This document shows, one piece after another, positions 729 to 27,083 of a stretch of DNA of 64,000 nt. The first letter of the stretch is position 1; each line of letters starts with the position of its first letter. The notes under the pieces are model-generated. The model had not been told where the DNA came from. It saw nothing but the letters and a program-made list of their open reading frames with translations, and did no database searches. The position numbers and the translations under genes were made by a program. The stretch is from Patescibacteria group bacterium (GTDB lineage Bacteria; Patescibacteriota; Patescibacteriia; JAQUQO01), in contig JAQUQO010000001.1 of NCBI GenBank assembly GCA_028716045.1, positions 452,096 to 516,095 on the forward strand, written 5' to 3'.

Positions 729-777
729 TTTTATATTGAAAAAATACTAAAAATAAACCAAAAGGAGGAACCAAAGA

Positions 778-1047: not shown

Positions 1048-1072
1048 GGCCCAGTAATAATCAAAACAACAA

Positions 1073-1105: not shown

Positions 1106-1178
1106 AATGTTATTTGAATTAGCTTTTACCTTCTTAATTTTACTTTTTTTCAATTTTAATTTTGAATTTTGATTTTAT

Positions 1179-2807: not shown

Positions 2808-2863
2808 CTGTTTATATAAGAAAAAGCTAAGCCGAAAATTCTTTCCGATTTAGCTTTCCCATT

Positions 2864-3202: not shown

Positions 3203-3220
3203 AAAAAATATTTTTCTTTG

Positions 3221-3544: not shown

Positions 3545-3625
3545 AAACTTTGACGTTATTTATTACAATAATATTATAACCTATTTTAAGGGAATTTACA
3601 AAAGCCGCTGTGGGAGCGGCTTCGG

Positions 3626-3859
3626 CTATTCTTCCTGCCAAGCCGGCAGGGTGTTTATAAATTCCTCTGTCTTAGCGCGCGCTTCCTCTTCGGACAAACC
3701 AAGCGTTTCCATAAAATAATGGTTTTTTATCCCTTCAAAGGCTTGCTCCTTGGTAACCCCAAGTTCCTGCCCGGCCTCATCCTTAGCGCAATGTTCGCAG
3801 TAACGACGCGTCTCATCATCCATGGGCAGACCGCAGGCCTCGCAACGAATTCCAATCAT
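3626..3859 (-). CDS. Small zinc-ribbon protein (CxxC...CxxC), unknown function
   Basis: 77 aa with CEACG...CEHC cysteine pairs and an acidic C-terminus. Confidence 0.45.
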   Translation of the reverse strand: MIGIRCEACGLPMDDETRRYCEHCAKDEAGQELGVTKEQAFEGIKNHYFMETLGLSEEEARAKTEEFINTLPAWQEE

Positions 3860-3878
3860 AATAATTTAATTTTAATTA

Positions 3879-9331: not shown

Positions 9332-9430
9332 GGCAATTTGATTTAAAAAATAAATTAAAGATATTTATCAATTATCGCTCTTTCTGCTAAAAAGTCAAAC
9401 AATCATGTGGATAAGGTTTCTCAAAATAAA

Positions 9431-9470
9431 AGAGCGCCCCGATGTTATGTCGGGGGCTCTTTTATTTTTC
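9431..9470. terminator. Rho-independent terminator hairpin downstream of the giant surface-protein gene
   Basis: AGAGCGCCCCGA-tgttatg-TCGGGGGCTCT followed by TTTTATTTTT. The reverse complement is also T-run flanked. Confidence 0.6.
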
Positions 9471-9477
9471 TAAAGCT

Positions 9478-12400: not shown

Positions 12401-15400
12401 CCCGGTGAAACTTTTACGGAAAAACTGCCATCGGATTTACTTTGACTAAACCCGCCGAAACACTCCATACCCTCACCGGTAGTGGCATCAAAACAACCGA
12501 TTGGCGCCGCGTGCACATAAACATTGGCAATTCCATTATTACTGCCGTCTTTAACAAAACCAGTAATAGTATTGCCGGCGACTACTAAATCAAAAGTGAT
12601 GGCCGAGGGGTTGGAATCTGTGGGAACCACGACATCAACCGGCTTGGGCGGCATAAAATCAAAATCCGGCATTGGCGGAGGTCCGCCATTACCCATGGAT
12701 GTCGTCGGCATATGCGGACCGGCGCCGCAAGTATAGGTATTGCCGGGTTGAAGTTTAACCGTCGTCGTTCCCGCCCCAGCCCCATCCAAAGTTATGGTCT
12801 TCATAGTCGGCGTGGAAAACTGGTAATCCGAACCCCCGGAATGACAGAAAACATCAATGCTTTTGCCGCTCATCGCCGCCGAACTGGCAATTGTCACACC
12901 GAGCGATTTGCCGGTAGCGGACAAGTCGGCAAATTTAAAATCAGCATCAGTCTTGGAAGCATCAGATAAAGTAATATTCTGGAAACCTCCGCCGCCGCCA
13001 CCGACGTTAGCTAAACACCCCTGACCCGTAGGCAAACCACAACCGTATTGACCGGCTGACAATCCCGAAATAGACCAGTCGCCGGAAGCATCAGTAGAGG
13101 TTTCCAGATGACCAGCCGTCACACCGGTACCATAACCGCCCATGGAATCGCAGAAAACTCTGGCCCCCACAACCGCGCTATCTTCTCCGCCGCAAGTGCC
13201 GCCGGAAGCCGAGCCCTTACAAACCGTTCCTGAAATAGTCAAACTTCCGGCAGCGCTAACAGAGAACGGCGATGCCTGTAAAGTTTGGCCAAGTTTAACT
13301 CCGGTATTATCTTTAATAACAATAGGAACTCTTTGATTATCTGCTGGGGTGGAAGGATTTTTAAGACCTTGTAATTCAAAGTGAATTTGGTCACCGGAAG
13401 CAATAGCGGCCGTACCGGTAGTAACCGTAATAGTCAGAGCCACACTATCTATGGCTGCCGAAGCGATAGTCGGCGCGTTAGCGGCTGGGCCATTAATATC
13501 CCGATTTAACCAGGAATCCTGCTCGGTCGGCACGCCGATACTAGTCAAAACAAAACCAGTGGGCATAGTTAAAATAAATTGCGAGCCCGAGGGTAATGCC
13601 GCCGGAGCGGGAAATTCACAATCTAAATTGCCTGTCTTATCAGTCAGAGAATTTACTGGCTGACACCTTACGGGGTTCATCCAAAAAGTAGCAAAGTTGG
13701 TACCTGACTGAAAATCCTGAGTATTACCCGTACCAAGCATTCCGCCGGTGGTGGCTGAATTAAGAACCTTGAAATTAGCTATGTTATTTGAACTGTCCGT
13801 ATCCATGACATTACCGGCTAAATCGCGAACTCCTGTGCTAACAGTCAAACGGCAACTTTGGTCAGTCTGTAAACCTAAGGCGCGAATTTCCAATTCTTTA
13901 GTGTCTGGACGCCAAGAAGCATCTTTGCCGGCAAGATTAACTGTCACCCCTACCGGGCATTCAAAAGTAAGATTAGTGGTGTTAGGATTACTGCCGCTCA
14001 AAATATCAGGGACTTGTAGCGCCTCTGAGAAATGAGCCACTAATTTAAAATTATCCGCGTCAGCAAAAAGCAACTTGGGCTTAGTGGTATCTGAGTCATT
14101 GGCCGTCGTAAAACATTGATTGGCCGAAGCGGTCAAGGCATTACCCGCCATATCTTCAATAGCATTAGTCACTTGAAAACAATATTTTGTGTTACCTGCC
14201 AGCGCTGATTTCAAACCCATACGGACGGTCATACTCGCCGGGTCATAAAACATTGAGAGATCATCTGACCCCAACAATGTTTCTCCACCGTCCCTTGCGT
14301 TATTACTATTGGCATCGGCGTATAAACCGATATTGGTTCCCAGGGAAAAAGTAGTGGAATCAAGGGCTTCGGAAAAATAAATGCCTACTTCCGGCACATA
14401 ACGGGAAACGCCAGTAGCTTCGTTGGCGGGAGAAGTGGGATTAGTAGTTCTGATTGTCGGAGCGGTAGTATCAGTCTCAGTGCCGGTGATGAATCTCGCT
14501 ATATAAGGCGGATTCACCGCTACGCCGGCGCTATTGGTCATTGTTGCTTCCACCCTCAATTCATATTCAGTACTAACGGTTAAGGCCGTTGCCGGTTCAA
14601 CCGTTAAAGTTCTGTTAGTGGAATTATAGGTTAAAGTACAATCGGCTCCGCAAAGGTCATCGCCCGACGGGATACCAGAACTCAAGGCCTTAAACGTGAT
14701 GTTGGCATGATTATCAACGGCACCAGCGCCGGAAGTTATCATATCCCCTTCCGGGCCCTGAGAAAAAGTTAAAGTCATTTTTGTATTGGTCGGCACCAAG
14801 GTAGTACCGGGCATGGGAGTACTGTTCATTACGCGGGGCATTGTACTATTATCTCCGCCGCTAAAAGAACTGGTAGTAAACATTCCTTCAAAAGCCAAAC
14901 CGGACGGCACTCCGCCAGCGCAAACCTCTATTGGGCAGTCACCGGCCGCGTTGCCTGCCACATCAGTCACGCTATTGGTGATAAAAAATCTATATCCTCC
15001 CGTGGCCCGTACCGGCAAAGCATCGTGATTACAAATAATTCGATTATTGTTGCTAAGAGTAGTGGAAGTGCAAAGATTCGTTGTCCCGAAAACATCCCCC
15101 GGGTCAACGGTTACCAATCTTACTGTGTCATTATCAAGGCTGCCGCCGTCAGCTGTGACAGTGTTAGGATTTAAGTTTTCCGAAAATTGCCGATCTAATA
15201 AGGCATCCACCGGAACATTGCCCTGACCGGTCGGAGGACCACCCGTGGTTGTCGCTACTGGAGCAATGGCATCATCGGTGATAGTAATTATATTAGACGT
15301 CTTGGCAGTGATGGTCGGCGAAGAACCCGAAGTAACTATGCCGTCAGCGGCAATACCCACGGTAAAAGCATGACCGACCGTAGGCGCATCAGAAATTTCC

Positions 15401-15924
15401 GCCATGACAATAAAAGTAGTTGAGGTGGCCGGGATGGCATTATCAAGAATAGTCATTGATTCTGTCCAAGGGCTACCCCCGCTTAAGCCATCTGACATTG
15501 CGGCATAAACATCTTCAAGGGGGTCATAAGTACCATTGCCATTAGCATCTCTTACCACCCATAAGGGAGCGTTGCCACCGCCAGCCGAAGCCAAATCGCC
15601 AGAAGCAAACCCGCTTGAACCGGTAATTGTAAATGTTAGACTGGTAATTGTTTCTCCGCTACTGGCGGCTAAATTAAATTTTAATACCTGCACAAATGAT
15701 GGGGCTGTGCCATATACGCTAGCCTTAGCTTTTTGTCCGGAAAAAGTCATATCCGTGGCTCCGCTGGCGGTTACTGCCGCTAAAGCAAAGCCCGGGAAAA
15801 GAATAACGATTGAAGCTCCTACTGACCACAAAATAGTCGTAAAAACGATAAAAAGCGTGCCGAGCCGGTTCACGCTTTCCCTTAATTTGCGATGCCATTT
15901 CTTATTTTTTGAACATCTTTTCAT
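9478..15924 (-). CDS. Giant (2148 aa) cell-surface protein
   Basis: Uninterrupted 6.4-kb ORF with SD AAGAGG upstream. N-terminal signal anchor. Gly/Thr/Ser-rich with many predicted beta-sandwich (Ig-like, carboxypeptidase-regulatory-like) repeats and a recognisable FN3-like segment (VTLTWTDPTDADFDYIEIL). A Pro/Thr linker precedes a unique ~200-aa C-terminal domain. Confidence 0.85.
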   Translation of the reverse strand: MKRCSKNKKWHRKLRESVNRLGTLFIVFTTILWSVGASIVILFPGFALAAVTASGATDMTFSGQKAKASVYGTAPSFVQVLKFNLAASSGETITSLTFTITGSSGFASGDLASAGGGNAPLWVVRDANGNGTYDPLEDVYAAMSDGLSGGSPWTESMTILDNAIPATSTTFIVMAEISDAPTVGHAFTVGIAADGIVTSGSSPTITAKTSNIITITDDAIAPVATTTGGPPTGQGNVPVDALLDRQFSENLNPNTVTADGGSLDNDTVRLVTVDPGDVFGTTNLCTSTTLSNNNRIICNHDALPVRATGGYRFFITNSVTDVAGNAAGDCPIEVCAGGVPSGLAFEGMFTTSSFSGGDNSTMPRVMNSTPMPGTTLVPTNTKMTLTFSQGPEGDMITSGAGAVDNHANITFKALSSGIPSGDDLCGADCTLTYNSTNRTLTVEPATALTVSTEYELRVEATMTNSAGVAVNPPYIARFITGTETDTTAPTIRTTNPTSPANEATGVSRYVPEVGIYFSEALDSTTFSLGTNIGLYADANSNNARDGGETLLGSDDLSMFYDPASMTVRMGLKSALAGNTKYCFQVTNAIEDMAGNALTASANQCFTTANDSDTTKPKLLFADADNFKLVAHFSEALQVPDILSGSNPNTTNLTFECPVGVTVNLAGKDASWRPDTKELEIRALGLQTDQSCRLTVSTGVRDLAGNVMDTDSSNNIANFKVLNSATTGGMLGTGNTQDFQSGTNFATFWMNPVRCQPVNSLTDKTGNLDCEFPAPAALPSGSQFILTMPTGFVLTSIGVPTEQDSWLNRDINGPAANAPTIASAAIDSVALTITVTTGTAAIASGDQIHFELQGLKNPSTPADNQRVPIVIKDNTGVKLGQTLQASPFSVSAAGSLTISGTVCKGSASGGTCGGEDSAVVGARVFCDSMGGYGTGVTAGHLETSTDASGDWSISGLSAGQYGCGLPTGQGCLANVGGGGGGFQNITLSDASKTDADFKFADLSATGKSLGVTIASSAAMSGKSIDVFCHSGGSDYQFSTPTMKTITLDGAGAGTTTVKLQPGNTYTCGAGPHMPTTSMGNGGPPPMPDFDFMPPKPVDVVVPTDSNPSAITFDLVVAGNTITGFVKDGSNNGIANVYVHAAPIGCFDATTGEGMECFGGFSQSKSDGSFSVKVSPGTYIVGADAPGMPMSEEQEVTVDKSGSLTQNGTGVASITIKMVKSSTTISGQVLDEAGNGIKYANVGAEKIASGGTCESFTPTGGHADSPTDQSGNYTLYVSAGTWCVRAYAPSYGEVGNKVVVISGTTSATGQNIAATAASYGTISGTVKKNNVATGGAFVACHSSSGGNNTQSGNDGTYSIKVKAGSNYTCDGFIYGAGPLTPVTGVTVSSGGAVTVDLSMGNPGTVTVTITGIADAFVDIRDSNGRGAGISQNSSGAYIVKVPPGTYTVRGGGPKYGELCAGQTVTVTAGGTHAVTCTPPANLRTVTGRVYDGSSNIFGARIIFSNANSGRFFDVMSTAQSDPDNNFSLTNVPEGTYNVRVFKPGYEPATTTAVVSGGNLTMSTPITLTKASGANGTGHTIAVQLSGAAYTGNAKVIATKDGKVIVAENDKTTGNATLNLTNGTWSVEAYGDNGKKSSAGSVVISGGVVQGGSTATLSLDTDITGFTSGSDTGTLVPSTGGLIKSDQIAGLEINIPSSTLSTTDSNTGKIDITKDPTIAVDPGTDMNFVGASGYDIAPKDSSGNALGKSLSGDAVTLTLPYTAADVTAAGVDESKLMCGTFNVSSQTWETFPTTVDTENNSITCQVSHFSSFGVLGSVSGSSSGRNGDPVPPGIAENIGISTDGTSVTLTWTDPTDADFDYIEILRNNGGNSLVNPSSYAVVQDGVKTFTDRSVTTGTFYKYAIRTVDINANYTDSSEVSITANVPTPSQSPGGGGGTPTPTTTPEAVTITPAPVATPAPVAVLIKDPSQVEEILSGLSLIRKQSDEAKYLPLIKSDAIAFKVGLTEAQETAITNFVSYGISTETKNLGAGERRAVIRDYLETVGRGAVSWEDIQKMAIGAKPVGRNLTKERAQVGTVLKMFKKIVGHEPNFQDAKEDLAWNTMMYRIRFSRELSKEKTAIVKFKAIFWRLPKSPLDWAAIRAIAYTGVIE

Positions 15925-16214: not shown

Positions 16215-16994
16215 TTATAATTCCGGGGAATTTTTGTTATTCGCGTATAAAAATCCCATATTTTTTTCAAATTTTGACGGGAAAATTTGCGTTCCAAATC
16301 CTTTTTCTCGCAACATACCCTCTAATTCTTTATGCGACCGATTATTAAAATTATGATATTCCAAGATAATGGCTTTGATTCTCTCCCATTCCCCTTCTGC
16401 CAAACCCTTAAAAACCTCAAATTCTCCTCCTTCTATATCCATTTTAAGAAGGGGGATTTTCTTTATCTTCTCTAAACGAAGTAAATCCCCTAAGCTCACT
16501 ACTGACACTTTAACGAAATCAGAACATTCTCCCCCCTCTTCCGCCAAGCGATGGTTGTGACTGTCCGCAGAAAGACAAAGACGCCCTTCACCGGACTTGC
16601 CGCCCAAAGCAACGGGCAAAACTTTCACTCCCGAAATTTCATTTTCCGTAAGATGTTTTTTTAACATTTCGCGATTCTTGGCTTCCGGTTCCAGCGCGAA
16701 TATCTTCACCCGGTCATTAAAGCTGCGGGCGTATAACGTAAAAAATCCGGCGTGCGCGCCGACATCTATAATCGGCTCGCTCGCCGACTTAATCGCCTCT
16801 TCGGCCGCGCGATATTCTCTCAATTTAAAAATTTCCGCGACCACGCTGCGGTCCGCTTCGTCTCGCGGATAAATTTTATAAACCCGGCCGTTAAATTTTA
16901 TAACTTCCTGCTGCATATATATTTTATCGATCGCGCTACGCTTCTTTAAAATTATACGCTGGGACTCCGCTTTCGCAATACGATGGTAAACCAT
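16215..16994 (-). CDS. FkbM-family SAM-dependent methyltransferase
   Basis: 259 aa. DVGAHAGFFTLYA ... KMDIEGGEFEV are hallmark FkbM-domain motifs. Confidence 0.75.
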   Translation of the reverse strand: MVYHRIAKAESQRIILKKRSAIDKIYMQQEVIKFNGRVYKIYPRDEADRSVVAEIFKLREYRAAEEAIKSASEPIIDVGAHAGFFTLYARSFNDRVKIFALEPEAKNREMLKKHLTENEISGVKVLPVALGGKSGEGRLCLSADSHNHRLAEEGGECSDFVKVSVVSLGDLLRLEKIKKIPLLKMDIEGGEFEVFKGLAEGEWERIKAIILEYHNFNNRSHKELEGMLREKGFGTQIFPSKFEKNMGFLYANNKNSPEL

Positions 16995-17902
16995 TTCCGC
17001 CCGCGAAGATCCTGATTATCCTCATAGAGGACTCCAAATCCGTCGCCCGCCAACCTCTTAATATCATCGGGGGTATAAAAATAAAAGGTTCTGGGGCCAA
17101 ATTCATCAATTTTTGTTTCTTCTTTATAATCGCCAAATTTTAAAGAAATGTAAAAAATCCCCCCATCATTAAGGGCCACTTGGGCTTTCTCCAAAATCCG
17201 CTTAACGGAGCTTTTATCGGAATGTAATAATGAAGCAAAAGCGAAGATTATATCTAAACCAAGGGGAAATCGGAAATCTTCAAAATCGGCGATTTTAAAA
17301 ACGGTTCCGGGGACATTCGTTCTGGCAAGCGCTATCATTTCCGGAGAAACGTCTATGCCTAAATAATTATTGGTATATTTTATTATTTCTTTGGCATCGC
17401 GGCCGTTGCCGCAACCAAGTTCTAAAATTTTTGGATCTTTCTTGCCGACAAAAGAGAAGGCCCTTTCTATGTCTTTTATTCTCGTCCCCACAGCGTCAAA
17501 CGTACCTGCTAATTTAATCGCTTCCTTTCGGTAAGTATTCATTGTCCTTTGCTTATTATCAATCAGAATTCTACTACCGCCGCGCCAATATCTCGCCCCC
17601 AAAAAGCCGAAGAAACCTAAAAAACCGAAAAACCCCGTGGATAAATCCGGGATTAAACCCAAAAGCCCCACCAACCCCAAAAAACCGATTTTCCATAAAT
17701 CTTTTGGCTCACCTCTTCTGAAGTAAATAAAGGTATTATAAAAAATTGAAGTAATAAAACTTAAAACAAAAACAAAAAATAAAATAAAATAAAAAAATAC
17801 GCCTTCTTCAATTTTAAAAAGACCGTAAAAAGCATTGCGTAAAATGACGGCTAGTATAGACAGCCCGAATAAAATATAGGTTATCTTGGTCTGTTTTTCC
17901 AT
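16952..17902 (-). CDS. Membrane-anchored class I SAM-dependent methyltransferase
   Basis: 316 aa. About 4 N-terminal TM helices, then ILELGCGNGRDAKEI (motif I). Overlaps the downstream FkbM gene by about 40 nt. Confidence 0.65.
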   Translation of the reverse strand: MEKQTKITYILFGLSILAVILRNAFYGLFKIEEGVFFYFILFFVFVLSFITSIFYNTFIYFRRGEPKDLWKIGFLGLVGLLGLIPDLSTGFFGFLGFFGFLGARYWRGGSRILIDNKQRTMNTYRKEAIKLAGTFDAVGTRIKDIERAFSFVGKKDPKILELGCGNGRDAKEIIKYTNNYLGIDVSPEMIALARTNVPGTVFKIADFEDFRFPLGLDIIFAFASLLHSDKSSVKRILEKAQVALNDGGIFYISLKFGDYKEETKIDEFGPRTFYFYTPDDIKRLAGDGFGVLYEDNQDLRGRKWFTIVLRKRSPSV

Positions 17903-17910
17903 ATTCTCAT

Positions 17911-17953
17911 TCTATCAAAAAATCGCCCCTTGATAAACTCGGGGCGATTTTTT
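17911..17953. terminator. Bidirectional rho-independent terminator (AAAAAATCGCCCC...GGGGCGATTTTTT), directly abutting the start of the membrane MTase gene
   Basis: Perfect 10-bp GC-rich stem with an A-run on one side and a T-run on the other. On the minus strand it is followed by TGATAGAAT-N6-ATG. Confidence 0.6.
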
Positions 17954-18041: not shown

Positions 18042-18479
18042 CTATTTCGGCGTTTCCGGCCTGATTTGGATTGTCTGCGCCGTGATACTACCATCGTCAT
18101 TCTTTTTCCCGCTGACCGTGACTGTCTTACCGATTTCCAAGTCGCTCGTCGCGCCACTCACAAATTTGTTAACCTCCGTGCTTTCCCCGAAAAAAATAAT
18201 TTTAGAACCGCCGTCAGAAAGTTTGACGGTAATACTTTTATCGTCTTTGGAAATGATTTCTCCGGCGATAAATCCTCCGCCCGCTTTCAGGTCTTTCCCC
18301 TCTCCCCCGCCAAACCCCAATTGTCCGGAAGGAGCTTGCCGCCCCGCTGATGGCCAATCGGCAAAATTCACATCGCCTCTCCCGAATTTTTTATGTTGGC
18401 CGTACTTCAGGCCGGCATAGAATGCCCCGCCGCCGGCGACGATAGCCACGATGAGAATGACTAACAATGTTTTCTTCAT
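18042..18479 (-). CDS. Small membrane-anchored secreted protein, Gly-rich linker + beta-rich C-terminal domain (DUF5666-like); paralog of 22269-22778
   Basis: 145 aa. N-terminal TM/signal, GFGGGEGKDLKAGGG linker, then ITVKLSDGGSKIIFFGESTEV...TVTVSGKKNDDGSITAQTIQIRP. This aligns by eye with the C-terminal domain of the 169-aa protein. Confidence 0.55.
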   Translation of the reverse strand: MKKTLLVILIVAIVAGGGAFYAGLKYGQHKKFGRGDVNFADWPSAGRQAPSGQLGFGGGEGKDLKAGGGFIAGEIISKDDKSITVKLSDGGSKIIFFGESTEVNKFVSGATSDLEIGKTVTVSGKKNDDGSITAQTIQIRPETPK

Positions 18480-18509
18480 ATATTTAATTAGTTTTGAATT
18501 TTTTACTTA

Positions 18510-19730
18510 TTATTCAAATCTCAACGCTTGGATGGGGTTTAGCCCCGCCGCCCGCCGCGCCGGATAGTAGCCGAAAATAATGCCGATGGCCGCCGACACG
18601 CCAAAAGCCAAAATAATTGAAAGTGAAGATACTTCGGTGGTAGTGCCAAACTTGGAAATTATAAAAGAAGCCAGCCAGCCGATAAAAATTCCAACCAACC
18701 CGCCGATGAAAGTAAGCATCACCGCTTCAGCCAAAAATTGCCGGCCAATATCTTTCTTTTTGGCTCCAATCGCTTTGCGCAAACCGATTTCGCGCGTTCT
18801 TTCAGTGACAGTGGTTAGCATCATATTCATAATGCCGATACCGCCGACCACCAGAGAAATGCCGGCGATTGACCCGAGTAAAATCGTTAAAGTATTGGTA
18901 ATGGAAGAAGCGCTGGAAATTATATCTGATTGGTTCATGGTGGAAAAATCAGCGCTCTGCGCGTCGGCAATGTTATGACGAAGCAATAACAACGAGGTAA
19001 TTTCTTCCTGCGTCACTGACATGGAACTTTGGTCAACGGCTTCCACGTTGATAGTGGTGAGATATTCATTGCCCGCCAAAAACCGTTGGGCCGTGGACAG
19101 AGGAATAAAAATCCGGTCGTCCTGGTTGGAAAATCCCGTACCGCCCTTGGAAACCGTCAGGCCGATAACCTTAAACTCCGCGCCCTTAATACGAATCGTC
19201 TGCCCGACAGGATTGACATCTTCGCCAAACAGGTCGTCTCTGACTGTCGGACCCAAAACGGCCACTTTGGAAGTGTTACTCACGTTTTGGTCGGAAATAA
19301 AAACACCCTCTCCGACTTCCAGATTCTTGACGGCGGGATAAGCCGCGGTGGTGCCGATAACCTGCGTATTGGTATTTGAGCCTTTGGCTGTCACTTGATA
19401 ACGACCCGCCACCTCCGACGCAACGGCCTGCACGGTGTTAATCTCATCGGCAATCGCTTCGGCATCGGCCAGCGTTAACGATTGCGCCGCCCCCCACCCT
19501 GACCTGACTTGAGAACCAACTGTCCTTTGCATGCCCGGAGTCACCATAATTAAATTGGAACCCAGCGCCTGGATGCTGGATTCAATAGTGCCGGTCGCTC
19601 CCTGCCCCACGGAAATCATTGCTATTACCGAACCGATACCAATGACAATACCTAAAATCGTGAGTCCGGAACGGGCTTTATTCATGAGCAAGGCCGAAAA
19701 TGTTTCTTTAAATAGATCCGCTGAAAGCAT
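18510..19730 (-). CDS. ABC transporter permease, MacB/FtsX family
   Basis: 406 aa. N-terminal TM, large periplasmic domain, and three C-terminal TM helices with an FtsX-like signature (AIGAKKKDIGRQFLAEA...). Confidence 0.85.
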   Translation of the reverse strand: MLSADLFKETFSALLMNKARSGLTILGIVIGIGSVIAMISVGQGATGTIESSIQALGSNLIMVTPGMQRTVGSQVRSGWGAAQSLTLADAEAIADEINTVQAVASEVAGRYQVTAKGSNTNTQVIGTTAAYPAVKNLEVGEGVFISDQNVSNTSKVAVLGPTVRDDLFGEDVNPVGQTIRIKGAEFKVIGLTVSKGGTGFSNQDDRIFIPLSTAQRFLAGNEYLTTINVEAVDQSSMSVTQEEITSLLLLRHNIADAQSADFSTMNQSDIISSASSITNTLTILLGSIAGISLVVGGIGIMNMMLTTVTERTREIGLRKAIGAKKKDIGRQFLAEAVMLTFIGGLVGIFIGWLASFIISKFGTTTEVSSLSIILAFGVSAAIGIIFGYYPARRAAGLNPIQALRFE

Positions 19731-19738
19731 AAAATTTT

Positions 19739-20455
19739 CTATTCTTTGATTTGCTGGGTTATTTTGTCTTTGGTCCAGGAACTGACGCTATCATCAACAA
19801 TTTCTCCGTCTTTAATGGCGATTACTCTTCGGGCATGTTCGGCTATATACTTTTCATGAGTGATAAGAATAATGGTGCGGCCCTGTTTGTTTAAATCCTG
19901 AAAGGTCTCCAAAACAATCTCGCCGGTTTTGCTGTCTAGATTACCAGTAGGTTCGTCGGCAAATATAATCTTGGGATTATTAATAAGCGCGCGCGCAATC
20001 GCCACTCTCTGCATTTGCCCGCCGGAAAGCTGATTGGAGAGATGGTAAAAATGCGACTCGTCAAGTCCGGCGTTCTTAAGCGCCTCCTTGGCTTTTTTTT
20101 CTCTCTCCTCCAGCGGCACTTCCATATAGATTAACGGCAAAATTACGTTTTTAAGAACCGTGGCTCGCGGCAAAAGATTAAATGACTGAAAAACGAAACC
20201 GATTTTGTTTTTTCTGATATCCGCCAGCTCGTCATCGGATAATTTTGACACGTCCTGGCCGTCTAAAAAATATTCGCCGCTTGTCGGCGTATCCAAACAG
20301 CCCAAGATATGCATCAGGGTTGACTTGCCCGAACCGGACGGCCCGACAATGGCCGTAAATTCGCCATCCTGAATCGTCAGAGAAACCTCTTTAAGCACTG
20401 TCGTTTCCAATTCTCCGGCTTTATATATTTTTGTGATATTTTTACATTCAATCAT
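19739..20455 (-). CDS. ABC transporter ATP-binding protein (MacB/LolD-type)
   Basis: 238 aa. Walker [13 protein letters not shown] signature [15 protein letters not shown] and Walker [13 protein letters not shown]. Confidence 0.9.
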
Positions 20456-20465
20456 ATAGTTCGAA

Positions 20466-22241
20466 TTATCTCATGCCCGGCCCGCCGCCGGATATGCCAA
20501 AAACGGAAGCGTTCGTTTTATTCCCGCCGGAAGAAGTTGTTGACGTTGAATTTTTTTGAATAGTTCTGACGATGATGATATCGCCCTCGGACAGGCCGCT
20601 TAAAACTTCGGTATATTCATCATTGGAAATTCCCGCTTCTATCTGCCGGCGCTCCGGAGAATTCTTTAAAATAATTCCGCCGGAAACGGCCGCGGCCGTG
20701 ACGTCGGTTTCCGCCGCGCCGGGCGCCTCCACATAACTTACGTCGTTCTGCTGTTTGACCGCCGCGTTAGGCACGGACAAAGTATCCAGCTTGACCTCCG
20801 TAACGATGGAGGCGGAAACGCTCATGCCGGGCTTAACCCGTTCGTCCTGCGTATCAAAAACTATTTTAACGTTATAAGTCACCACACCTTGGCTGACCGT
20901 GCCGATGGCGTCAATTTCCGCCACCTCTCCGGCAATACTCAACTCTTCTACGGCGTCAAAAGTGAGTGTCGCTTTCTGGCCGGTTTTCACTTTGGCGGCA
21001 TCCACTTCATTCAAAGAAATTTCGGCGATTTTCTGCTTGGTAATCAGCGTTCCCAAAACGGTTGCGGAAGAAACCGTGTCGCCCTTTTTGGCATCCACCG
21101 CTACCATCACGCCGTCAAAAGGAGCGCGCACGTAATAATCCGCGTATTTTTCCTTGGCATCCAACAACGCGTTCTCTTTCTGCTTGATGGTTAATTCCGA
21201 TGATTTAATATCAAGTTCGTCAGCTCCGGCTTTGAGGTCGGCCAGCGAGCCGGTTTTTTCGGCAATGGTTCTGTCGGCGTTAATAATAGTTTCTTTATCA
21301 GTTTGTATCGTCCGTTCTATGGCCAGAAGATTGGAAAGATGGTTATTCGTCTGCCCCGTATAAGTGTTTAAATCTGATAAATAAGTGGTGGCCAGCGTTT
21401 CGGGCGTAAAATTATGTTCAATCAGCTGGTCGGCATAAAATTGGATGAGATTATTGGCGTCCTTGACGGCTTCCGCGATATTCTTGGTGGTTTCGTAAGT
21501 TTCATCAATCAATGATTCAATCACGTCGTCAGTTGAAAATCGGCTGGTGGCTTTGTAATCATTAAAATTTTCATCGTAAGCCGTCCGGGCGGTTTCATAC
21601 GATTCTTTGGCGCTGTTTTTGTAGATTAAAACCTTGCCGTCATAACCCTCCACTCTGTCGGAAAAATAATCTAAATTATCCTGATTCTTGTTAAAAGTGT
21701 TGCCGAATAAAATATCGTTGAGACCGGACATCACTGTTGGCAAATCCAGAAAAACATTGGCGACATCGTTGAAACCGTCCTCATACGCTTTGACAAGGTC
21801 ATCATCCGCTTTTTGTTTGGATTCTTTGGCTTGAGCTAAAGAATTTTCGGCCTGAAGAATTGACAGTTCGTCCGCCGGCTTCTTTAATTTTTCCAATGAC
21901 AACTTCGCCGATTCCAGCGCGGATTCGGCGTCGCGAACCGATTTTTGCGCTTCCTTGGAATCTAACTGTCCGATCAGCGTGCCAGTTTTCACTTCCTCGC
22001 CCGTTTTCACTCCGACATAAACAAGGTCGCCGGAGATTTTCGGCGTAATGTCTATTTGATTGGATGCCGAGATTTGTCCGCTACCGAAAACGGAAGTGAT
22101 AAGCGTTCCCTTGGTCACGGCTGCCAAAACATAGCGGACTTCGGCCGTGTCGCCCCAGTACGCTTTATATCCGAAATAACCGCCGACCGCGGCCAGCGCG
22201 ACAATCAGGACGATGATAATTTTTCGCTTGGCTAAAAACAT
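20466..22241 (-). CDS. HlyD/MacA-family periplasmic adaptor (membrane fusion protein) with long coiled-coil
   Basis: 591 aa. N-terminal TM, biotinyl/lipoyl-like and beta-barrel segments flanking an extended coiled-coil. Operon position upstream of the ABC ATPase and permease. Confidence 0.7.
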   Translation of the reverse strand: MFLAKRKIIIVLIVALAAVGGYFGYKAYWGDTAEVRYVLAAVTKGTLITSVFGSGQISASNQIDITPKISGDLVYVGVKTGEEVKTGTLIGQLDSKEAQKSVRDAESALESAKLSLEKLKKPADELSILQAENSLAQAKESKQKADDDLVKAYEDGFNDVANVFLDLPTVMSGLNDILFGNTFNKNQDNLDYFSDRVEGYDGKVLIYKNSAKESYETARTAYDENFNDYKATSRFSTDDVIESLIDETYETTKNIAEAVKDANNLIQFYADQLIEHNFTPETLATTYLSDLNTYTGQTNNHLSNLLAIERTIQTDKETIINADRTIAEKTGSLADLKAGADELDIKSSELTIKQKENALLDAKEKYADYYVRAPFDGVMVAVDAKKGDTVSSATVLGTLITKQKIAEISLNEVDAAKVKTGQKATLTFDAVEELSIAGEVAEIDAIGTVSQGVVTYNVKIVFDTQDERVKPGMSVSASIVTEVKLDTLSVPNAAVKQQNDVSYVEAPGAAETDVTAAAVSGGIILKNSPERRQIEAGISNDEYTEVLSGLSEGDIIIVRTIQKNSTSTTSSGGNKTNASVFGISGGGPGMR

Positions 22242-22268
22242 AAAAAATTTCTGCGTTATTGAAAATAA

Positions 22269-22778
22269 TTATTTCTTATTGGGAAAAATATCCAACGGGC
22301 GTTCCGCCGGCGGCGTGGGCATAATTCTGATGAGCTTGGCCGCTATCTGCCCGGTGTCATTCGGCTCGCCGATGGCCACCAAAAAATCATTAATTTTAAG
22401 TTCGGCCGGCTGGATGGTTTCCTTTAAACTTTTTATCACCGTCTCACCGTTAATTAAAATTATTTTTTCAACGTCTCCGCGCCCCTTGATGACCAGCGTG
22501 GCTATTCGCTCCGGCTCTGTCCCCGCGTCAATTTTTATAATTTGCCCGAAGGTGCCATTGGCTTCGATAAAATCCTTGTCGCTCCAACCCATGCCAAACC
22601 CGCCCCGCGGGCCGCCGAAATTCTGGTGATAATTATCGCTCCAGCGGCAGAAAAAATCCGCTTTTCTGAAACCCACCATGGTGCCGGCTTTAAAAGCGGC
22701 CAGCAGAATTAACAGCGCCAGAATCGCGAAAAAAGAATACTGAAATGCCTTGGATTGGAAAAATTTATTGATATCCAT
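22269..22778 (-). CDS. Small membrane-anchored protein, Gly-rich linker + DUF5666-like C-terminal domain; paralog of 18042-18479
   Basis: 169 aa. TM helix, GGPRGGFGMGW linker, then ...IATLVIKGRGDVEKIILINGETV...NDFLVAIGEPNDTGQIAAKLIRIMP, alignable to the 145-aa protein. Confidence 0.55.
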   Translation of the reverse strand: MDINKFFQSKAFQYSFFAILALLILLAAFKAGTMVGFRKADFFCRWSDNYHQNFGGPRGGFGMGWSDKDFIEANGTFGQIIKIDAGTEPERIATLVIKGRGDVEKIILINGETVIKSLKETIQPAELKINDFLVAIGEPNDTGQIAAKLIRIMPTPPAERPLDIFPNKK

Positions 22779-22784
22779 AAAAAT

Positions 22785-23204
22785 TTAATTATGAATTAAT
22801 TGTTTTAAGACAAAAATGAATTTTAAATTTTTTACCGACAATTTGAGCAACTCCAAAAAAACCAACACTACCGCCAATAGTAAAATCAAGCTCATCGCCG
22901 GCAGAGTTTCCAAAAGGGACAAGGCAAAGTTCTGCCAATAAGCGGCGACAATGCCGGTATCGGAAATAATCAAGGATAAAAATTTTATAAACCCCGATTC
23001 CGCAAACCCCGCGTAAACCATTTTAAAAACCGGGACCAAAGCCACTATTGACCCCAAAAGGCCAACGGAGAAAAGGGCTAAGCGGCGTTTGACGGCCGCT
23101 AATTTACGCTCCTCCTCAAGGCGGAGCAGCGTTCTTTGGAAAAGCCCGGCCGGCGGTTCCGGAGACGGGAGGCGGGTGAATAATTTTTCGTAATTTTCGT
23201 TCAT
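22785..23204 (-). CDS. Putative membrane anti-sigma factor
   Basis: 139 aa. Short cytoplasmic N-terminus plus 3 TM helices. Immediately downstream of, and co-oriented with, the ECF sigma factor gene. Confidence 0.45.
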   Translation of the reverse strand: MNENYEKLFTRLPSPEPPAGLFQRTLLRLEEERKLAAVKRRLALFSVGLLGSIVALVPVFKMVYAGFAESGFIKFLSLIISDTGIVAAYWQNFALSLLETLPAMSLILLLAVVLVFLELLKLSVKNLKFIFVLKQLIHN

Positions 23205-23280
23205 AAAATCTGGGTTATTATTAATACGAATTAAAAACGCCTTTTGGTGCGTTTCTTAAAAATGGTCTGTTTTTATAGAG

Positions 23281-23850
23281 TTATTCAACGGTTTCCGTAA
23301 GAATTTTTTTGAGCGCCAACAACGCGCGGCGCTGGCGGCTTTTGACCGTGTTTAAGGGCTCGCCGAGTACGGCAGCGATTTCACGAAAGTTAAAACCATC
23401 TTTGTAATACAAAAATAAAACCGCACGATATTTGGCCGGCAGCTTGTCCATGGCGCGGGCTAGCATCTGCTCTATATCCGCCCGTTCTAAAATTTCATCG
23501 GGCAAAGGAGCGGGGTCAACCAGTGTGTCTAAAATAGAGTTGCTATCGGCTTCGTCAGAGAGTTCGGAAAACAGCAGGGCTTTTTTCTTTTTTAAAAAAT
23601 CTATGGCCGTATTTTTGGCAATGCTGAAAATCCAGGTTTTAAAACTTTTCCGTTGGTCAAATTTTTTAATATGTTTCCACGCTTTGACAAAAACATCCTG
23701 GGTAATGTCTTCCGCGTCCGAAGCAGTGCCGGCGTAATAATAAACAAAGCCGTAAATCGGCTTTAGATATCGCTGAATTAAAACTTCCAGCGATTTCTCA
23801 TCGCCCTTGAGATACTGGCTGACAAGTTTTTCGTCGCTAATTTCCAGCAT
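23281..23850 (-). CDS. ECF-type RNA polymerase sigma-70 factor
   Basis: 189 aa. Region 2 DITQDVFVKAWKHIKKFD...FKTWIFSIAKNTAIDFLKKKK and region 4 FREIAAVLGEPLNTVKSRQRRALLALKKIL. Confidence 0.85.
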   Translation of the reverse strand: MLEISDEKLVSQYLKGDEKSLEVLIQRYLKPIYGFVYYYAGTASDAEDITQDVFVKAWKHIKKFDQRKSFKTWIFSIAKNTAIDFLKKKKALLFSELSDEADSNSILDTLVDPAPLPDEILERADIEQMLARAMDKLPAKYRAVLFLYYKDGFNFREIAAVLGEPLNTVKSRQRRALLALKKILTETVE

Positions 23851-23875
23851 ACCCAGTAGTATAGCATATTATACC

Positions 23876-23912
23876 AAAAATCGTCCTGAGTTTATCGAGG
23901 GACGATTTTTTG
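23876..23912. terminator. Bidirectional terminator hairpin (AATCGTCC...GGACGATT + T6) between the cupin gene and the ECF sigma promoter
   Basis: 8-bp stem, 13-nt loop, T6 on both strands. TATAAT and TATACT boxes follow on the minus strand before the ECF sigma ATG. Confidence 0.5.
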
Positions 23913-24402: not shown

Positions 24403-24828
24403 TTATTTTTGCTTTAACGAAGAATCCAAAAAAACAATCTTCCTTAAAATACGTTTGGGATTCCGCTTTATCTCGTGCTCCCAAAATCTCAACACTTTCC
24501 ACTCGTCTCGGATAAGTTGTTTCTTGACCTTTTTGTCTCTTTCCTGATTAGCGGCAATTTTTGTTTTCCAAAACTTTGCATTGGTCTGCGGATAAGTCCG
24601 ACATTTGGGGCAACCGTGCCAAAAACAGCCGTCAACAAAAACTGCTACTTTATTTTTTGGAAAGATAAAATCCGGAGTTCCAAAAATATGTCGGCCTCGA
24701 CGACGCCAACCCCTAATTTTATTTGCACGAAAAAGCGTTATCAGGGCGAGTTCGGTACTTTTATTGTTCCGGCCCCTGATAGCTGCCATATTTTTTGATC
24801 TTTGTGCTTTCGTGTGAACATCTACCAT
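24403..24828 (-). CDS. vsr: Very-short-patch repair endonuclease Vsr
   Basis: 141 aa. KAQRSKNMAAIRGRNNKSTEL...DGCFWHGCP... is the diagnostic Vsr signature. Sits at the tail of a C5-MTase operon. Confidence 0.9.
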   Translation of the reverse strand: MVDVHTKAQRSKNMAAIRGRNNKSTELALITLFRANKIRGWRRRGRHIFGTPDFIFPKNKVAVFVDGCFWHGCPKCRTYPQTNAKFWKTKIAANQERDKKVKKQLIRDEWKVLRFWEHEIKRNPKRILRKIVFLDSSLKQK

Positions 24829-24830
24829 TT

Positions 24831-24995
24831 TTACCCGGTTGATTTTCTACCTTTGCGCGAACATTCTGCCGAGCAAAACCTGCTAGTTGTCTGATAACCA
24901 TTTTTGCGCGGATGATAAGCTATTCCGCAAACATCACATATTTTAGTTATGCTCAAATCACGAACTTCCTTTGCTGTTTTCTTTTTAGCGGTCAT
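24831..24995 (-). CDS. Small (54 aa) Zn-ribbon-like ORF between the restriction endonuclease and vsr (not in ORF track)
   Basis: MTAKKKTAKEVRDLSITKICDVCGIAYHPRKNGYQTTSRFCSAECSRKGRKSTG. It has a CxxC...CxxxC arrangement and exactly fills the gap between the two genes. Read by manual translation. Confidence 0.3.
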   Translation of the reverse strand: MTAKKKTAKEVRDLSITKICDVCGIAYHPRKNGYQTTSRFCSAECSRKGRKSTG

Positions 24996-24997
24996 AA

Positions 24998-25993
24998 CTA
25001 TCTTTTGAAAATATTATCTCTGTGGTAATTAAGATATAAACACCTTTTGTCACTGGGCGGAATATTATATTTTCTTCCTTTTGCGAGATGAAGTTTTTTA
25101 AGGTTCAGGGGTGATATGTATGGCGAGAGAAGAATTGTTCCATCGTCTTCAAACGAAATAAATCCCTGATCAAACAACCGATCATATGTTGGTGTAAGTG
25201 CGAGTCCGTTATTATGGTCTATTTTCTCCGTCTCACTTGATACGCTCCATGGTTTTATGTGGCTTGCAATTAAAATCCTTTCATCGTTAACTCTCGTTAT
25301 TATACATTCTGACGATTCTTCCATCAATTTTTGTCGGTAAGCGCCTTGTCCGATTCTTGCATCTCTTAATTGTTCCTTTTTCTCCTCTGTCAATTTTGGG
25401 TCTTGCTCAATGGCTTTTTCAACTTCCTCAACCTTAGCGGGATGATAGTAAGGGTTAAAATTATAGCTTAATGCCGGTCTAAAAAAGAATTTTATATTTC
25501 CTTTGGCATCTTTTAATTTTAAAATTGAGATATAAGAAATAATCGGAAGCGCGATATTTCTGAAAAAATCAAAAACATTGTCATCTGATTTAATGTAAAA
25601 CCGTGATCTATCTTGCGGTACGGCATGGCTTATACTGAACTCTTCGTAATCAGAAAGCTCTTGTAATTTTTGGTGATATTCTTCCCATTTGCCGGAAATA
25701 TCCTGCCTATATTTTTGTTCCTGTTGTTCGTACTCAAATTTGGCGTCTCCTAAATAATCCTCAAAATCTTTTTTCAGAAAAAATCCTTTTCCACTAAAGT
25801 CGCCAAAAAAATCACCGAAATCTTTTTTCTTCTGAGCACCGACATACAATTTTGCCTCTCCGTGTCCTGTTGTACCTTGGAGTTTATTGCTTTTAACAAA
25901 AGAATCAGCCAGCGGAATATTATCCACTTCATCGAGCAATTCAAGCTGTTCTCCCTTAATTTCTATGTAGTTTTCTTCGTTATTATTTGGCAT
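24998..25993 (-). CDS. Type II restriction endonuclease, HNH family (HNH_2-like C-terminal nuclease domain)
   Basis: 331 aa. C-terminal ...GQGAYRQKLMEESSECIITR...ASHIKPWSVSS...DHNNGLALTPTYDRLFDQGFISF matches the HNH nuclease of type II REases. Contiguous with the MTase. Confidence 0.65.
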   Translation of the reverse strand: MPNNNEENYIEIKGEQLELLDEVDNIPLADSFVKSNKLQGTTGHGEAKLYVGAQKKKDFGDFFGDFSGKGFFLKKDFEDYLGDAKFEYEQQEQKYRQDISGKWEEYHQKLQELSDYEEFSISHAVPQDRSRFYIKSDDNVFDFFRNIALPIISYISILKLKDAKGNIKFFFRPALSYNFNPYYHPAKVEEVEKAIEQDPKLTEEKKEQLRDARIGQGAYRQKLMEESSECIITRVNDERILIASHIKPWSVSSETEKIDHNNGLALTPTYDRLFDQGFISFEDDGTILLSPYISPLNLKKLHLAKGRKYNIPPSDKRCLYLNYHRDNIFKR

Positions 25994-25994
25994 A

Positions 25995-27083
25995 TTACAA
26001 ATTTATTTTTGTTGAGCTAACACCCATATTCTGTAAAATAGCCATGAGTACATTAACGACAATGCTGTTGCCCGCCTGTTTATACATTTGAGTATCACTT
26101 ACAACTATGTTGAAACTATCATCAAAACCCATTAACCGCAAACATTCGCGCGGAGATAATTTTCTTATTCTTCCGCTACGCGTAATATAGTTATCCACTC
26201 CGGCACGATGCATTTTTGCCATTGTCGCAAGCAACGGGCGGGCAACAGCAAGGTCAGTCTCGGGTTTACTGTAAAAATTTTTTGTTCCGCTTGCCAAAAC
26301 ATATTTAGCAACTTTATCCGAAAGAAAATATTTTTCATCTACTCGCCCTGCCGGTTCAAAAACAAAATCTCCGTGCCAATTGAATTGCTGATTTGCTTTT
26401 TGGCAAAGCGCAACCTGTCCGTTAATTTGGGTATATTTCTTGTCTAGATTTTTCTGACTGGTTACAAATTTTATTCCTTTTTCAGGAAGATAATATTTAT
26501 TCTCCGCTGTATCATCAAGTAAATCATGCATTGTGATTTTTAATTCAACGGGATCAGGAAACTTAAATTTTTTTTTGTTTCTGAAACCGACAACAAAAAG
26601 ACGCTCACGGTTTTGTGGTATTCCATAATCTTTTGCGTTTAATACCTTCGGAAAATAGCTATAGCCAAGTTTCTTAAATGTATTTTGTATAACTTCCCAT
26701 GTTTTACCGCTATCATGACTTAATAATCCTTTCACATTTTCAAAAATAAACGCCTTCGGTTTTATTTCATTAACAAGACGGGCAAATTCATAAAATAATG
26801 TTCCGCGAGCGTCTTTGAATCCTCGTCTTTTTCCAACCATTGAAAATGACTGACATGGCGTTCCGCCGACAAGCAGATCAACTTTACCCTTGAATTTTTT
26901 GCCGTCTATGTTTTGAACAAGATCAAACCAACACGAATCGTCAACATCATAGTTGGCAAAAAAACTTTCTTTTACATGCGGATCATTGTCGCAGGCAAAA
27001 ACCAGCTTATGCTTAACCCGCATACGCTTTAACGCATGTTCTATTGCTCCTATTCCGCTAAATGCTGTTGCTAATTTCAACAT
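25995..27083 (-). CDS. dcm: DNA (cytosine-5)-methyltransferase (Dcm-type)
   Basis: 362 aa. Motif I LATAFSGIGAIEHAL, motif IV GGTPCQSFSMVGKRRG, motif VI ENVKGL and the C-terminal QAGNSIVVNV motif. Confidence 0.9.
   Translation of the reverse strand: MLKLATAFSGIGAIEHALKRMRVKHKLVFACDNDPHVKESFFANYDVDDSCWFDLVQNIDGKKFKGKVDLLVGGTPCQSFSMVGKRRGFKDARGTLFYEFARLVNEIKPKAFIFENVKGLLSHDSGKTWEVIQNTFKKLGYSYFPKVLNAKDYGIPQNRERLFVVGFRNKKKFKFPDPVELKITMHDLLDDTAENKYYLPEKGIKFVTSQKNLDKKYTQINGQVALCQKANQQFNWHGDFVFEPAGRVDEKYFLSDKVAKYVLASGTKNFYSKPETDLAVARPLLATMAKMHRAGVDNYITRSGRIRKLSPRECLRLMGFDDSFNIVVSDTQMYKQAGNSIVVNVLMAILQNMGVSSTKINL

Follow-up and report, generated by a model that had tools for sequence, protein, structure and literature searches.

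How is an exporter of the MacAB type brought under control in a single-membrane bacterium, and what part is played by two related small proteins whose genes stand at either end of it? The question is raised by a cassette of seven genes at positions 18042-23850 of a 64,000-nucleotide stretch of the genome of a Patescibacteria group bacterium (assembly GCA_028716045.1, contig JAQUQO010000001.1, positions 452,096 to 516,095 of the forward strand); the whole stretch is called the window here, and its own numbering is used throughout. All seven open reading frames (ORFs) are located on the minus strand. The first encodes an extracytoplasmic function (ECF, group 4) sigma factor of 189 amino acids (aa), SigW/RpoE-like (sigma, 23281-23850). 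It is followed by the genes of a 139-aa membrane protein with two predicted transmembrane (TM) segments and both ends inside, a putative minimal anti-sigma factor (R, 22785-23204); of a signal-anchored DUF5666 protein of 169 aa predicted to have an oligonucleotide/oligosaccharide-binding (OB) fold (A, 22269-22778); of a MacA-like membrane fusion protein of 591 aa (the adaptor, 20466-22241); of a MacB/LolD-type ATP-binding cassette (ABC) ATPase of 238 aa (19739-20455); of a MacB-type (type VII ABC) permease of 406 aa with an extracytoplasmic MacB_PCD domain (18510-19730); and of a 145-aa DUF5666/OB-fold paralog of A (B, 18042-18479). In the NCBI annotation the same products are named sigma factor, hypothetical protein (R), hypothetical protein (A), efflux resistance-nodulation-division (RND) adaptor, ABC ATP-binding protein, ABC permease and DUF5666 protein. 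A preliminary description of the locus took the seven genes for one operon under ECF sigma control, with a membrane anti-sigma factor, an exporter bracketed by two paralogs and a strong bidirectional terminator, and considered the arrangement unusual. Its coordinates, strand and gene content were confirmed, the Pfam and NCBIfam matches agreeing with the labels.

The seven-gene arrangement is real and strongly conserved. A pattern scan with one genome per species found a relative of A encoded in 271 genomes, and the best 80 loci were kept for comparison; their ORFs were called and compared with the seven proteins of the window, and 56 non-duplicate loci had sufficient flanking sequence to be evaluated. 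The order sigma-R-A-adaptor-ATPase-permease-B was found in 53 of these 56 species-level loci. The two small ORFs are linked to the pump genes in relatives, and what had been regarded as an oddity is the rule within Patescibacteria. The sampled lineages include many Parcubacteria/Paceibacteria and ABY1-type bacteria, among them Azam-, Gribaldo-, Komeili-, Kuenen-, Falkow-, Magasanik-, Buchanan-, Jackson-, Giovannoni-, Harrison- and Wolfebacteria, and the genes flanking the cassette are unrelated from one genome to the next. Three of the loci (L013, L033 and L064) have a second adaptor-ATPase-permease cluster without sigma and R, and these second clusters are also without A and B. They lie near the cassette, at positions 7998-10402, 141-5005 and 10698-13383 of the respective loci, the one in L033 having two permease genes.

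Apparently the arrangement has been undescribed so far. The cassette, the R family and a function for DUF5666 were not found described in the literature searched, a library that is incomplete, so that a prior description elsewhere is possible. The same literature gave no paper linking Patescibacteria with ECF factors and MacB; DUF5666 occurs in the papers checked as a mere data-table entry, and the main text of the ECF re-classification paper mentions neither these taxa nor pump families.

The sigma protein contains only the Sigma70_r2 (residues 24-90) and Sigma70_r4_2 (128-180) domains, with no sigma-3 or sigma-1 region in Pfam, and reaches 124.5 bits against TIGR02937 in NCBIfam (cut-off 42.9); it belongs to the ECF (group 4) factors. 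Its nearest solved relative is SigW of Bacillus subtilis (5wuq, 7.3e-27). The scores with the SigW equivalog models are below the cut-offs (NF007223, 125.3 bits vs 209; TIGR02948, 112.7 vs 243), and judged by these models the protein is SigW-like and not a SigW ortholog.

The promoter which this factor probably recognizes was sought by an unbiased count of dyads over 74 sigma-R intergenic regions, with shuffled sequences as the control. The dyad GCACC-N17-CGT was present in 65 of the 74 gaps, the maximum in the shuffles being 7, and the aligned regions gave the consensus tGCACCAAAA-N8-TTtTT-CGTATTA with a fixed spacer. In the window the ECF-type promoter is located at 23224-23250 of the minus strand (GCACC as the -35 element, a 17-nt spacer and CGTAT as the -10 element; exact copy of the motif 23225-23250). 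The stringent motif has 63 matches in 1.04 Mb of loci searched on both strands, every one of them in the same position and orientation, and further copies, which would point to more regulon members, were found neither elsewhere in the 64-kb window, which holds one exact copy, nor elsewhere in the 1.04 Mb of loci. The distance from CGT to the ATG of R has a median of 21.5 nt. ECF sigma control of the exporter, as first proposed, is upheld.

The sigma gene itself is preceded by a signal of another kind. The extended -10 pattern TGnTAnnnT is found 12-30 nt upstream of the start in 21 of 74 sigma genes, compared with 0-1 for each of the other six genes, and in the window two overlapping boxes of this type (TGGTATAAT and TGCTATACT; 23858-23876, minus strand) occur 16-26 nt before the sigma ATG, the box ending 6-7 nt before it. 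This promoter appears to be of the housekeeping type, and the short spacing suggests that the sigma mRNA is leaderless or has a very short leader. A near-leaderless layout was seen in the window and in loci L001, L015, L028, L030, L048, L056, L057, L059 and L088, among others. The usual ECF layout, an autoregulated sigma promoter, was considered and rejected, as no dyad was enriched upstream of sigma and the motif is found downstream instead.

Between sigma and R the window contains a hairpin followed by a T-run (23233-23256, minus strand; fold -8.1 kcal/mol), recovered by a terminator scan, whose loop and 3' arm contain the -35 element of the ECF promoter. An equivalent hairpin with a minimum free energy (MFE) of -5 or less, enclosing CACCAAAA and with a T-run after it, is present in 48 of 73 loci, the sequence of the stem differing between genomes, and the mean MFE of the sigma-R hairpins is -8.6, compared with -3.1 in shuffles. 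The hairpin is therefore best read as the intrinsic terminator of the sigma gene, overlapping the ECF promoter, and sigma as a predicted transcription unit of its own, separate from the genes from R to B. The single operon of seven genes thus stands for the part from R to B and falls for sigma, for which a separate extended -10 promoter and a separate terminator are predicted.

The remaining six genes are closely packed, with intergenic gaps of median 3-38 nt (5 nt between R and A), and R-A-adaptor-ATPase-permease-B would form one sigma-dependent transcript. It would end at the hairpin 17919-17951 (minus strand), which is bordered by an A-run and a T-run and has a fold of -22.8 kcal/mol (z -4.98), in keeping with the strong two-way terminator initially reported. 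A Shine-Dalgarno-like sequence before R is rare (7 of 72 loci), and none was seen by eye before A, the adaptor or B of the window. As sigma would be made constitutively and R would be part of the sigma-dependent transcript, negative feedback is expected to act through R, with positive autoregulation lacking from the circuit.

R consists of a Lys/Arg-rich head of about 41 residues, cytoplasmic by prediction, and two hydrophobic segments with a conserved aromatic loop of about 40 residues (ESGF..FFSLLFSD..YWQNF..LLETLP). The flanking Lys and Arg residues (5.7 on the N side vs 1.0 on the C side) indicate an N-in orientation by the positive-inside rule. The family is large: 1010 matches were obtained in a word index and 2355 representative clusters at 50% identity in an exhaustive profile search, 1923 of them with E <= 1e-10, the length remaining constant at 120-185 aa. 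Its members carry no functional annotation, most being called hypothetical and a few JGI entries having generic ABC-permease labels. None of 26 members matched a Pfam anti-sigma family (zf-HC2, RskA or similar), no relative in the PDB was found by a profile search at E 10, and no fusion to a known anti-sigma domain was present among the best 150 of the 2355 clusters (121-184 aa). Nor does R belong to the class I anti-sigma factors, since its head of about 41 residues compares with a four-helix domain of about 80-90 residues. By these searches the R family is unannotated and devoid of a canonical anti-sigma domain; a weak match to DUF5345 was seen in 2 of 26 homologs (E 0.009). We nevertheless infer that R is an anti-sigma factor, because it adjoins sigma invariably in the compared loci, has a predicted N-in topology, would be expressed from the promoter of sigma, and co-varies with sigma. 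Of the earlier claim, the membrane protein stands and its candidacy by position is strengthened by co-evolution with sigma, while a Pfam family, a zinc-finger anti-sigma domain and a solved relative are missing.

The pump genes are of a well-known kind. The permease matches MacB_PCD at residues 21-246 (3.9e-47) and FtsX at 287-399 (7.3e-23) in Pfam. It was compared with solved proteins, giving 1e-58 for MacB (5gko, over residues 9-404), 1.6e-37 for Spr0695 (5xu1_M) and 1.8e-6 for YknZ (5f9q), and by these values it is nearer to the Gram-negative MacB than to the Gram-positive Spr0695 and YknZ. The ATPase matches ABC_tran (1.5e-35, Pfam) and the nucleotide-binding domain of MacB (7.5e-78, NCBIfam). 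Both proteins belong to the MacB or type VII ABC systems, ATPase and permease being encoded by separate genes. The adaptor matches HlyD_D23 and HlyD_3 and reaches 135.3 bits against TIGR01730 (cut-off 94.9), which makes it a MacA-like adaptor. It aligns with MacA (4dk0) in two stretches, 34-140 and 338-563, between which there are about 200 extra residues in the hairpin region; the median length across the loci is 600 aa. The middle of the insert (about residues 150-320, some 170 residues at the hairpin tip) is rich in Asn, Asp, Tyr and Phe and is not coiled-coil-like in composition, and the C-terminal tail 571-591 is rich in Ser, Thr and Gly. No outer-membrane factor of the TolC kind was recognized by Pfam family among the genes called at loci L001-L008, the rest of the genomes not being searched, and the cassette has no YknW-type gene (four TM segments, Yip1-like), its extra proteins being the two-TM R and the single-pass A and B.

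The paralogy of A and B, at first noticed by eye, is formally significant. A BLASTP comparison gave E 1e-4 with 27% identity over 146 columns, and hhalign of family A against family B gave a probability of 97.6% and E 3.6e-12 over 134 columns; within the window the hidden Markov model of family A retrieved B alone (4.6e-11). The exporter is indeed bracketed by two paralogs. The aligned region takes in the end of the hydrophobic segment, where both proteins have the motif F..G(M)..G/Y..K. Neither further DUF5666 paralogs nor other ECF sigma factors or MacB-type genes were found in the window. B of the window reaches 25.6 bits against DUF5666 (PF18914; gathering score 27), and A of the window matches no Pfam family. 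At E <= 0.1 all of 25 members of the B family and 17 of 25 of the A family match DUF5666, several of them above 27 bits (29.1-30.3), and these matches together with the hhalign link place both families in DUF5666, the window copies being individually below the threshold; the guess that they are DUF5666 proteins is thus borne out at the level of the family.

AlphaFold2 models of A and B predict a helix, a Gly-rich linker of low confidence and a confident small barrel, which in the models is a five-stranded closed beta-barrel of OB topology. A Foldseek search against the PDB returned generic OB folds only, with 6-25% identity, the best neighbours being cytoplasmic nucleic-acid-binding OB folds; the C-terminal domain of SilB (2l55) was among the matches of B, with a TM-score of 0.63 normalised by target length. 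Conserved residues of a metal site (His, Met or Trp) were not found in the barrels of A and B. A has a conserved, cytoplasmic-looking N-tail (MDINKIFQSK) and, next to the membrane, the almost invariant motif ADFSCRWSDNYHxNFGGP, its most conserved segment. In B the N-terminal hydrophobic segment is followed by a linker, disordered over its roughly 40 residues; the linker of most B homologs contains an LTxxQ-like element (NLSPEERQQR, more fully NLSPEERQQR.QQ), that of the window being diverged (ADWPSAGRQAPSGQ). PF13801 (Metal_resist, CpxP/ZraP-like) is matched below the threshold by 3 of 25 members of the B family (best 23 bits, P0114, residues 5-71; gathering score 29.2) and is not matched by B of the window, which does not belong to the LTxxQ proteins.

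Both small proteins had been assigned a TM anchor. The hydrophobic N-terminal segment is present in both. In B it may be a cleavable signal peptide: an MKK n-region and a hydrophobic core of about 12 residues are followed by small residues at -3/-1 (GGGA, GGGS or GGAS) before an invariant Phe20, so that B may be cleaved and released. A has no plausible signal-peptidase cleavage site. The orientation of both is left undecided by the positive-inside rule, and we place the OB domains outside the cytoplasm on account of the signal-like N-termini, the C-tails rich in Pro, Gln, Asn and Thr, and the weak likeness of a few B homologs to the N-terminal half of CpxP/ZraP.

Which of the products act together was approached by co-variation, with a partial Mantel test over 58 cassettes and 999 permutations. 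The expected partners ATPase and permease served as the control (partial r 0.58, p 0.001), and the value for sigma and R was comparable to it (0.46, p 0.001). A co-varied with B (0.25, p 0.001), with R (0.24, p 0.002) and with the adaptor (0.22, p 0.003), and B with sigma (0.20, p 0.004) and with the permease (0.16, p 0.026). The pairs adaptor-ATPase (0.08) and adaptor-permease (0.09) were not significant.

On balance it is probable that the cassette is a self-contained envelope-defence module, inducible and self-limiting, in which R is the anti-sigma factor and A and B are extracytoplasmic partners of the pump. The SigW-like sigma would be made constitutively on a short transcript, from its housekeeping extended -10 promoter to its own hairpin terminator, within which the -35 element of the sigma-specific promoter sits. 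At rest R would keep sigma at the membrane, by means of its two TM segments and a cytoplasmic head of 40 residues. An envelope signal would inactivate R and free sigma, and the sigma-specific promoter would then give a single mRNA for R, A, the MacA-like adaptor with its enlarged hairpin, the MacB-type ATPase and permease, and B. The pump would be induced together with more R and, since free sigma also raises R, the response would limit itself. By analogy with the MacB-type systems of single-membrane bacteria, the pump may pick up a membrane-active or wall-space toxin (a peptide, an antibiotic or a lipid) at the outside of the membrane and pass it through the adaptor tube. A would be tethered close to the membrane and bridge R and the adaptor, and B, its partner, would be carried on a long flexible linker or be released; the two may capture the substrate and hand it over, as CusF does for CusB, report the load of the pump to R, or do both. 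In this scheme we infer what R does, that A and B face outward, which proteins these two touch and what the pump carries.

That A and B would be accessory proteins of the induced pump is the preferred reading: the positions of their genes are strict, the motifs at the end of the TM segment are common to both, A co-varies with R, the adaptor and B, and the paralogous pumps without sigma have neither of them. Of the three roles considered at the outset (cargo, accessory subunit or sensor), cargo is the least likely.

The alternative that survives best, an unlikely one all the same, makes A and perhaps B the signal-input parts of the switch rather than parts of the pump, as extracytoplasmic OB-fold sensors or co-anti-sigma factors which would bind the inducing ligand and determine how stable R is or which conformation it takes. 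The outside loop of R, with its roughly 40 residues, is too small to sense much, and A, whose gene follows immediately after R and which co-varies with it, would have its juxtamembrane motif on the same membrane face as the conserved aromatic loop of R. The confinement of A and B to clusters which also have sigma and R agrees with such a role, as does the weak PF13801-like half of some B homologs. A sensor produced only after induction would, however, be unusual, even if feedback sensors exist, and since A and B would be transcribed from the sigma-dependent promoter they would be outputs of the switch. Moreover, A co-varies with the adaptor as well, and in the 53 loci with the standard order the gene of B comes last, beyond those of the pump.

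It is tempting to speculate, although we think it rather improbable, that R, A and B form a flux-sensing device specific to Patescibacteria, in which a minimal anti-sigma factor is controlled by pump-associated OB-fold proteins reading the substrate load or the activity of the pump. Such a device would be analogous to BceAB-BceS, built from unrelated parts, and the placing of the promoter in the terminator would insulate the constitutive sigma gene from the inducible output.

Stress-induced periplasmic OB-fold proteins are known, namely YdeI/OmdA and YgiW, and A and B might likewise be stand-alone protective chaperones or shields of the envelope (like YgiW/YdeI or Spy/CpxP), co-regulated with the pump and making no contact with it or with R. 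The OB fold is generic, B is sometimes absent or moved, and the LTxxQ-like element in the linker of most B homologs, with the few sub-threshold PF13801 matches, points in the same direction. Against this, A between R and the adaptor and B after the permease keep their strict positions over very divergent genomes, which argues for co-assembly; the motifs shared at the TM end suggest packing of the helix with a partner; A co-varies with adaptor and R; and neither A nor B matches the BOF family of Pfam. We consider this explanation quite unlikely.

MacAB and Aat systems move small proteins, and B, possibly also A, could be cargo exported by Sec and freed of the signal peptide, which the MacB-type pump would then drive through the tube of the adaptor and on to the surface of the cell. 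The n-region, core and small residues before Phe20 of B are compatible with a signal-peptidase I site, and MacB-family pumps handle Sec-exported substrates of up to about 10 kDa (PMC5985334). The mean pairwise distance of B (0.95) is close to that of the adaptor (0.96) and near that of sigma (0.86), and the residues around its putative cleavage site are invariant, neither of which is typical of surface cargo; A lacks a plausible cleavage site and has a conserved cytoplasmic tail, and a stress-induced, self-limiting sigma circuit would be an odd control for a secreted structural product. Cargo is therefore very unlikely. Most improbable is a reversed topology (N-out, C-in) with cytoplasmic OB domains acting on the ATPase, sigma or nucleic acid, since the charge bias which does not favour N-in for A or B and the cytoplasmic nucleic-acid-binding folds among the best structural neighbours are answered by Lys-rich N-termini before a hydrophobic segment as in signal anchors or peptides, by Pro/Gln/Asn/Thr-rich C-tails typical of wall-exposed segments, and by the fold-level nature of the structural matches; DUF5666 proteins with signal peptides are also known from elsewhere.

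Several observations weigh against the defence module with A and B as pump partners. R has no recognisable anti-sigma domain, its match to NF010501 being weak (E 0.019), and the promoters and terminators are assigned from sequence. Part of the co-variation could be explained by the adjacency of the genes, that is, by a shared recombination history, and among the signals for A and B only A-B and sigma-B concern genes which are not adjacent. The contact of adaptor and permease is expected and yet gave no significant value, which shows that the method is weak. The positive-inside rule is neutral for A (Lys plus Arg 2.7 vs 2.8) and for B (2.05 vs 2.7); for the adaptor it is clear (3.3 vs 1.9). In one locus (L055) B adjoins A, and in two (L061 and L077) it is absent from the flanks examined, so that B is not strictly required at its usual place. 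No clue to the substrate was seen in the conserved neighbourhood.

The cassette is bracketed exactly by two near-identical hairpins of 33 nt in inverted orientation, one being the terminator at its 3' end and the other (23877-23909, minus strand; fold -12.7 kcal/mol) being predicted to terminate transcription of the cupin gene upstream. They read AAAATCGCCCCTTGATAAACTCGGGGCGATTTT and AAAATCGTCCCTCGATAAACTCAGGACGATTTT, and the differences between them include one compensatory change in the stem; the pattern has just these two matches in 64 kb, with 0.00 expected. As a general bracket of a mobile element the pair was rejected: it is a feature of this genome only (score 28 vs a control maximum of 16), with no comparable pair elsewhere. 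Directly upstream of the cupin gene, at 24403-27083, there are genes for a Vsr mismatch endonuclease, a 54-aa ORF, an HNH_2 endonuclease and a C-5 cytosine DNA methylase, that is, a restriction-modification system with a repair partner. After the cassette, on the same strand, two methyltransferase genes overlap by 43 nt (16215-17902), one of the FkbM type and the other of the S-adenosylmethionine (SAM) type with an N-terminal multi-TM region. A probable giant surface protein of 2148 aa is encoded at 9478-15924; it has a hydrophobic segment at the N-terminus, together with Big_5 Ig-like domains and CarboxypepD_reg repeats. The GC content of this region (0.49-0.51) is above that of its surroundings (about 0.42), and at 42001-44000 the GC content falls to 0.319, compared with about 0.43 nearby. 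In other genomes the genes downstream of the cassette vary, some of them being envelope-related: L001 (12724-14302) encodes a protein with an MprF-like LPG_synthase_TM domain, and at the usual place of B in L077 (7182-9667) there are ORFs which, judged by eye, suggest VKOR/DsbB, thioredoxin and CcdA kinds of thiol-disulfide proteins.

Patescibacteria, the candidate phyla radiation (CPR), have tiny genomes with very few regulators and are mostly uncultured. That such genomes keep the cassette intact over very divergent lineages suggests that it is probably important for life on or near host cells, and it may be the main envelope-stress or antimicrobial-defence response of these bacteria. The precisely defined promoter motif could serve as a searchable handle in metatranscriptomes, and the compact, apparently orthogonal pair of sigma factor and promoter might be used as a genetic part. 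The R family offers a large unannotated pool of candidate minimal anti-sigma factors. For DUF5666 the cassette would give a first functional context, that of a membrane-tethered OB fold linked to a MacB-type pump; if A and B are indeed subunits for substrate delivery or flux sensing, they would represent a new class of accessory proteins for such pumps.

Among known systems the closest working analogue would be sigmaW of B. subtilis with yknWXYZ, which protects against the SDP toxin. The sigmaW consensus is TGAAAC-N16-CGTA. The two have in common a SigW-like factor and a CGTA -10 element, and in both the target, within a single-membrane cell, is a MacA-like adaptor with a MacB-type permease and an ATPase separate from it. 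An extra membrane protein of unclear role is co-transcribed with the pump. The yknWXYZ operon belongs to the core sigmaW regulon (PMC3498285), and the MacAB-like pumps of Gram-positive bacteria, which work from the outer side of the membrane, can be accompanied by an extra membrane protein of enigmatic role (PMC5985334). The differences are considerable. The regulon of sigmaW is large and dispersed, whereas sigma, regulator and pump form here a compact cassette with a single promoter, whose -35 element is GCACC and which is placed in a terminator. RsiW has a zinc-binding anti-sigma domain, which R is without; YknW is a four-TM Yip1-like protein, its place being taken here by a pair of DUF5666 paralogs with an OB fold; the adaptor exceeds its counterpart by about 200 residues, and the permease has its better match with MacB than with YknZ.

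Spr0693-0694-0695 of Streptococcus pneumoniae, whose structure is solved (PMC5768738), is also an operon of adaptor, ATPase and permease in a cell without an outer membrane, with a homologous permease, and is induced by antimicrobial peptides (PMC5985334). It differs in having no linked ECF sigma gene, no OB-fold accessory genes and a much shorter adaptor.

In the sigY-yxlCDEFG cluster of B. subtilis an ECF sigma gene is followed by genes for small membrane proteins, among which there is a non-canonical anti-sigma factor, and for an ABC transporter. The clustering of an ECF sigma gene, then small membrane proteins and an ABC transporter, is alike, whereas sigY is co-transcribed with the whole operon and autoregulates it, the transporter is not of the MacB type and has no adaptor, and the small proteins do not have an OB fold. 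Apart from the weak DUF5345 match of the two R homologs, no sequence relation to this cluster was detected.

For A and B themselves a functional parallel may be CusF, a small extracytoplasmic OB-fold protein encoded in cusCFBA of Escherichia coli (copper/silver efflux), which hands the substrate to the adaptor CusB. An OB-fold gene within an efflux-pump operon, the match of the fold of B to the CusF-like C-terminal domain of SilB, and the co-variation of A with the adaptor are in line with such a parallel. The Cus system differs in that its pump is of the RND type and belongs to a two-membrane cell, and in that CusF, a soluble protein, uses His, Met and Trp to bind metal; its likeness to A and B is at the level of the fold only. 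For CcmE with CcmAB, in cytochrome c maturation, no sequence relation was found, A and B are without the heme-binding histidine motif, and the biological context is another. Seen against these systems, a MacAB-like defence pump under the control of an ECF factor would be a known theme, and what appears to be new in the cassette is the regulator family, the class of accessory proteins and the layout of the promoter.

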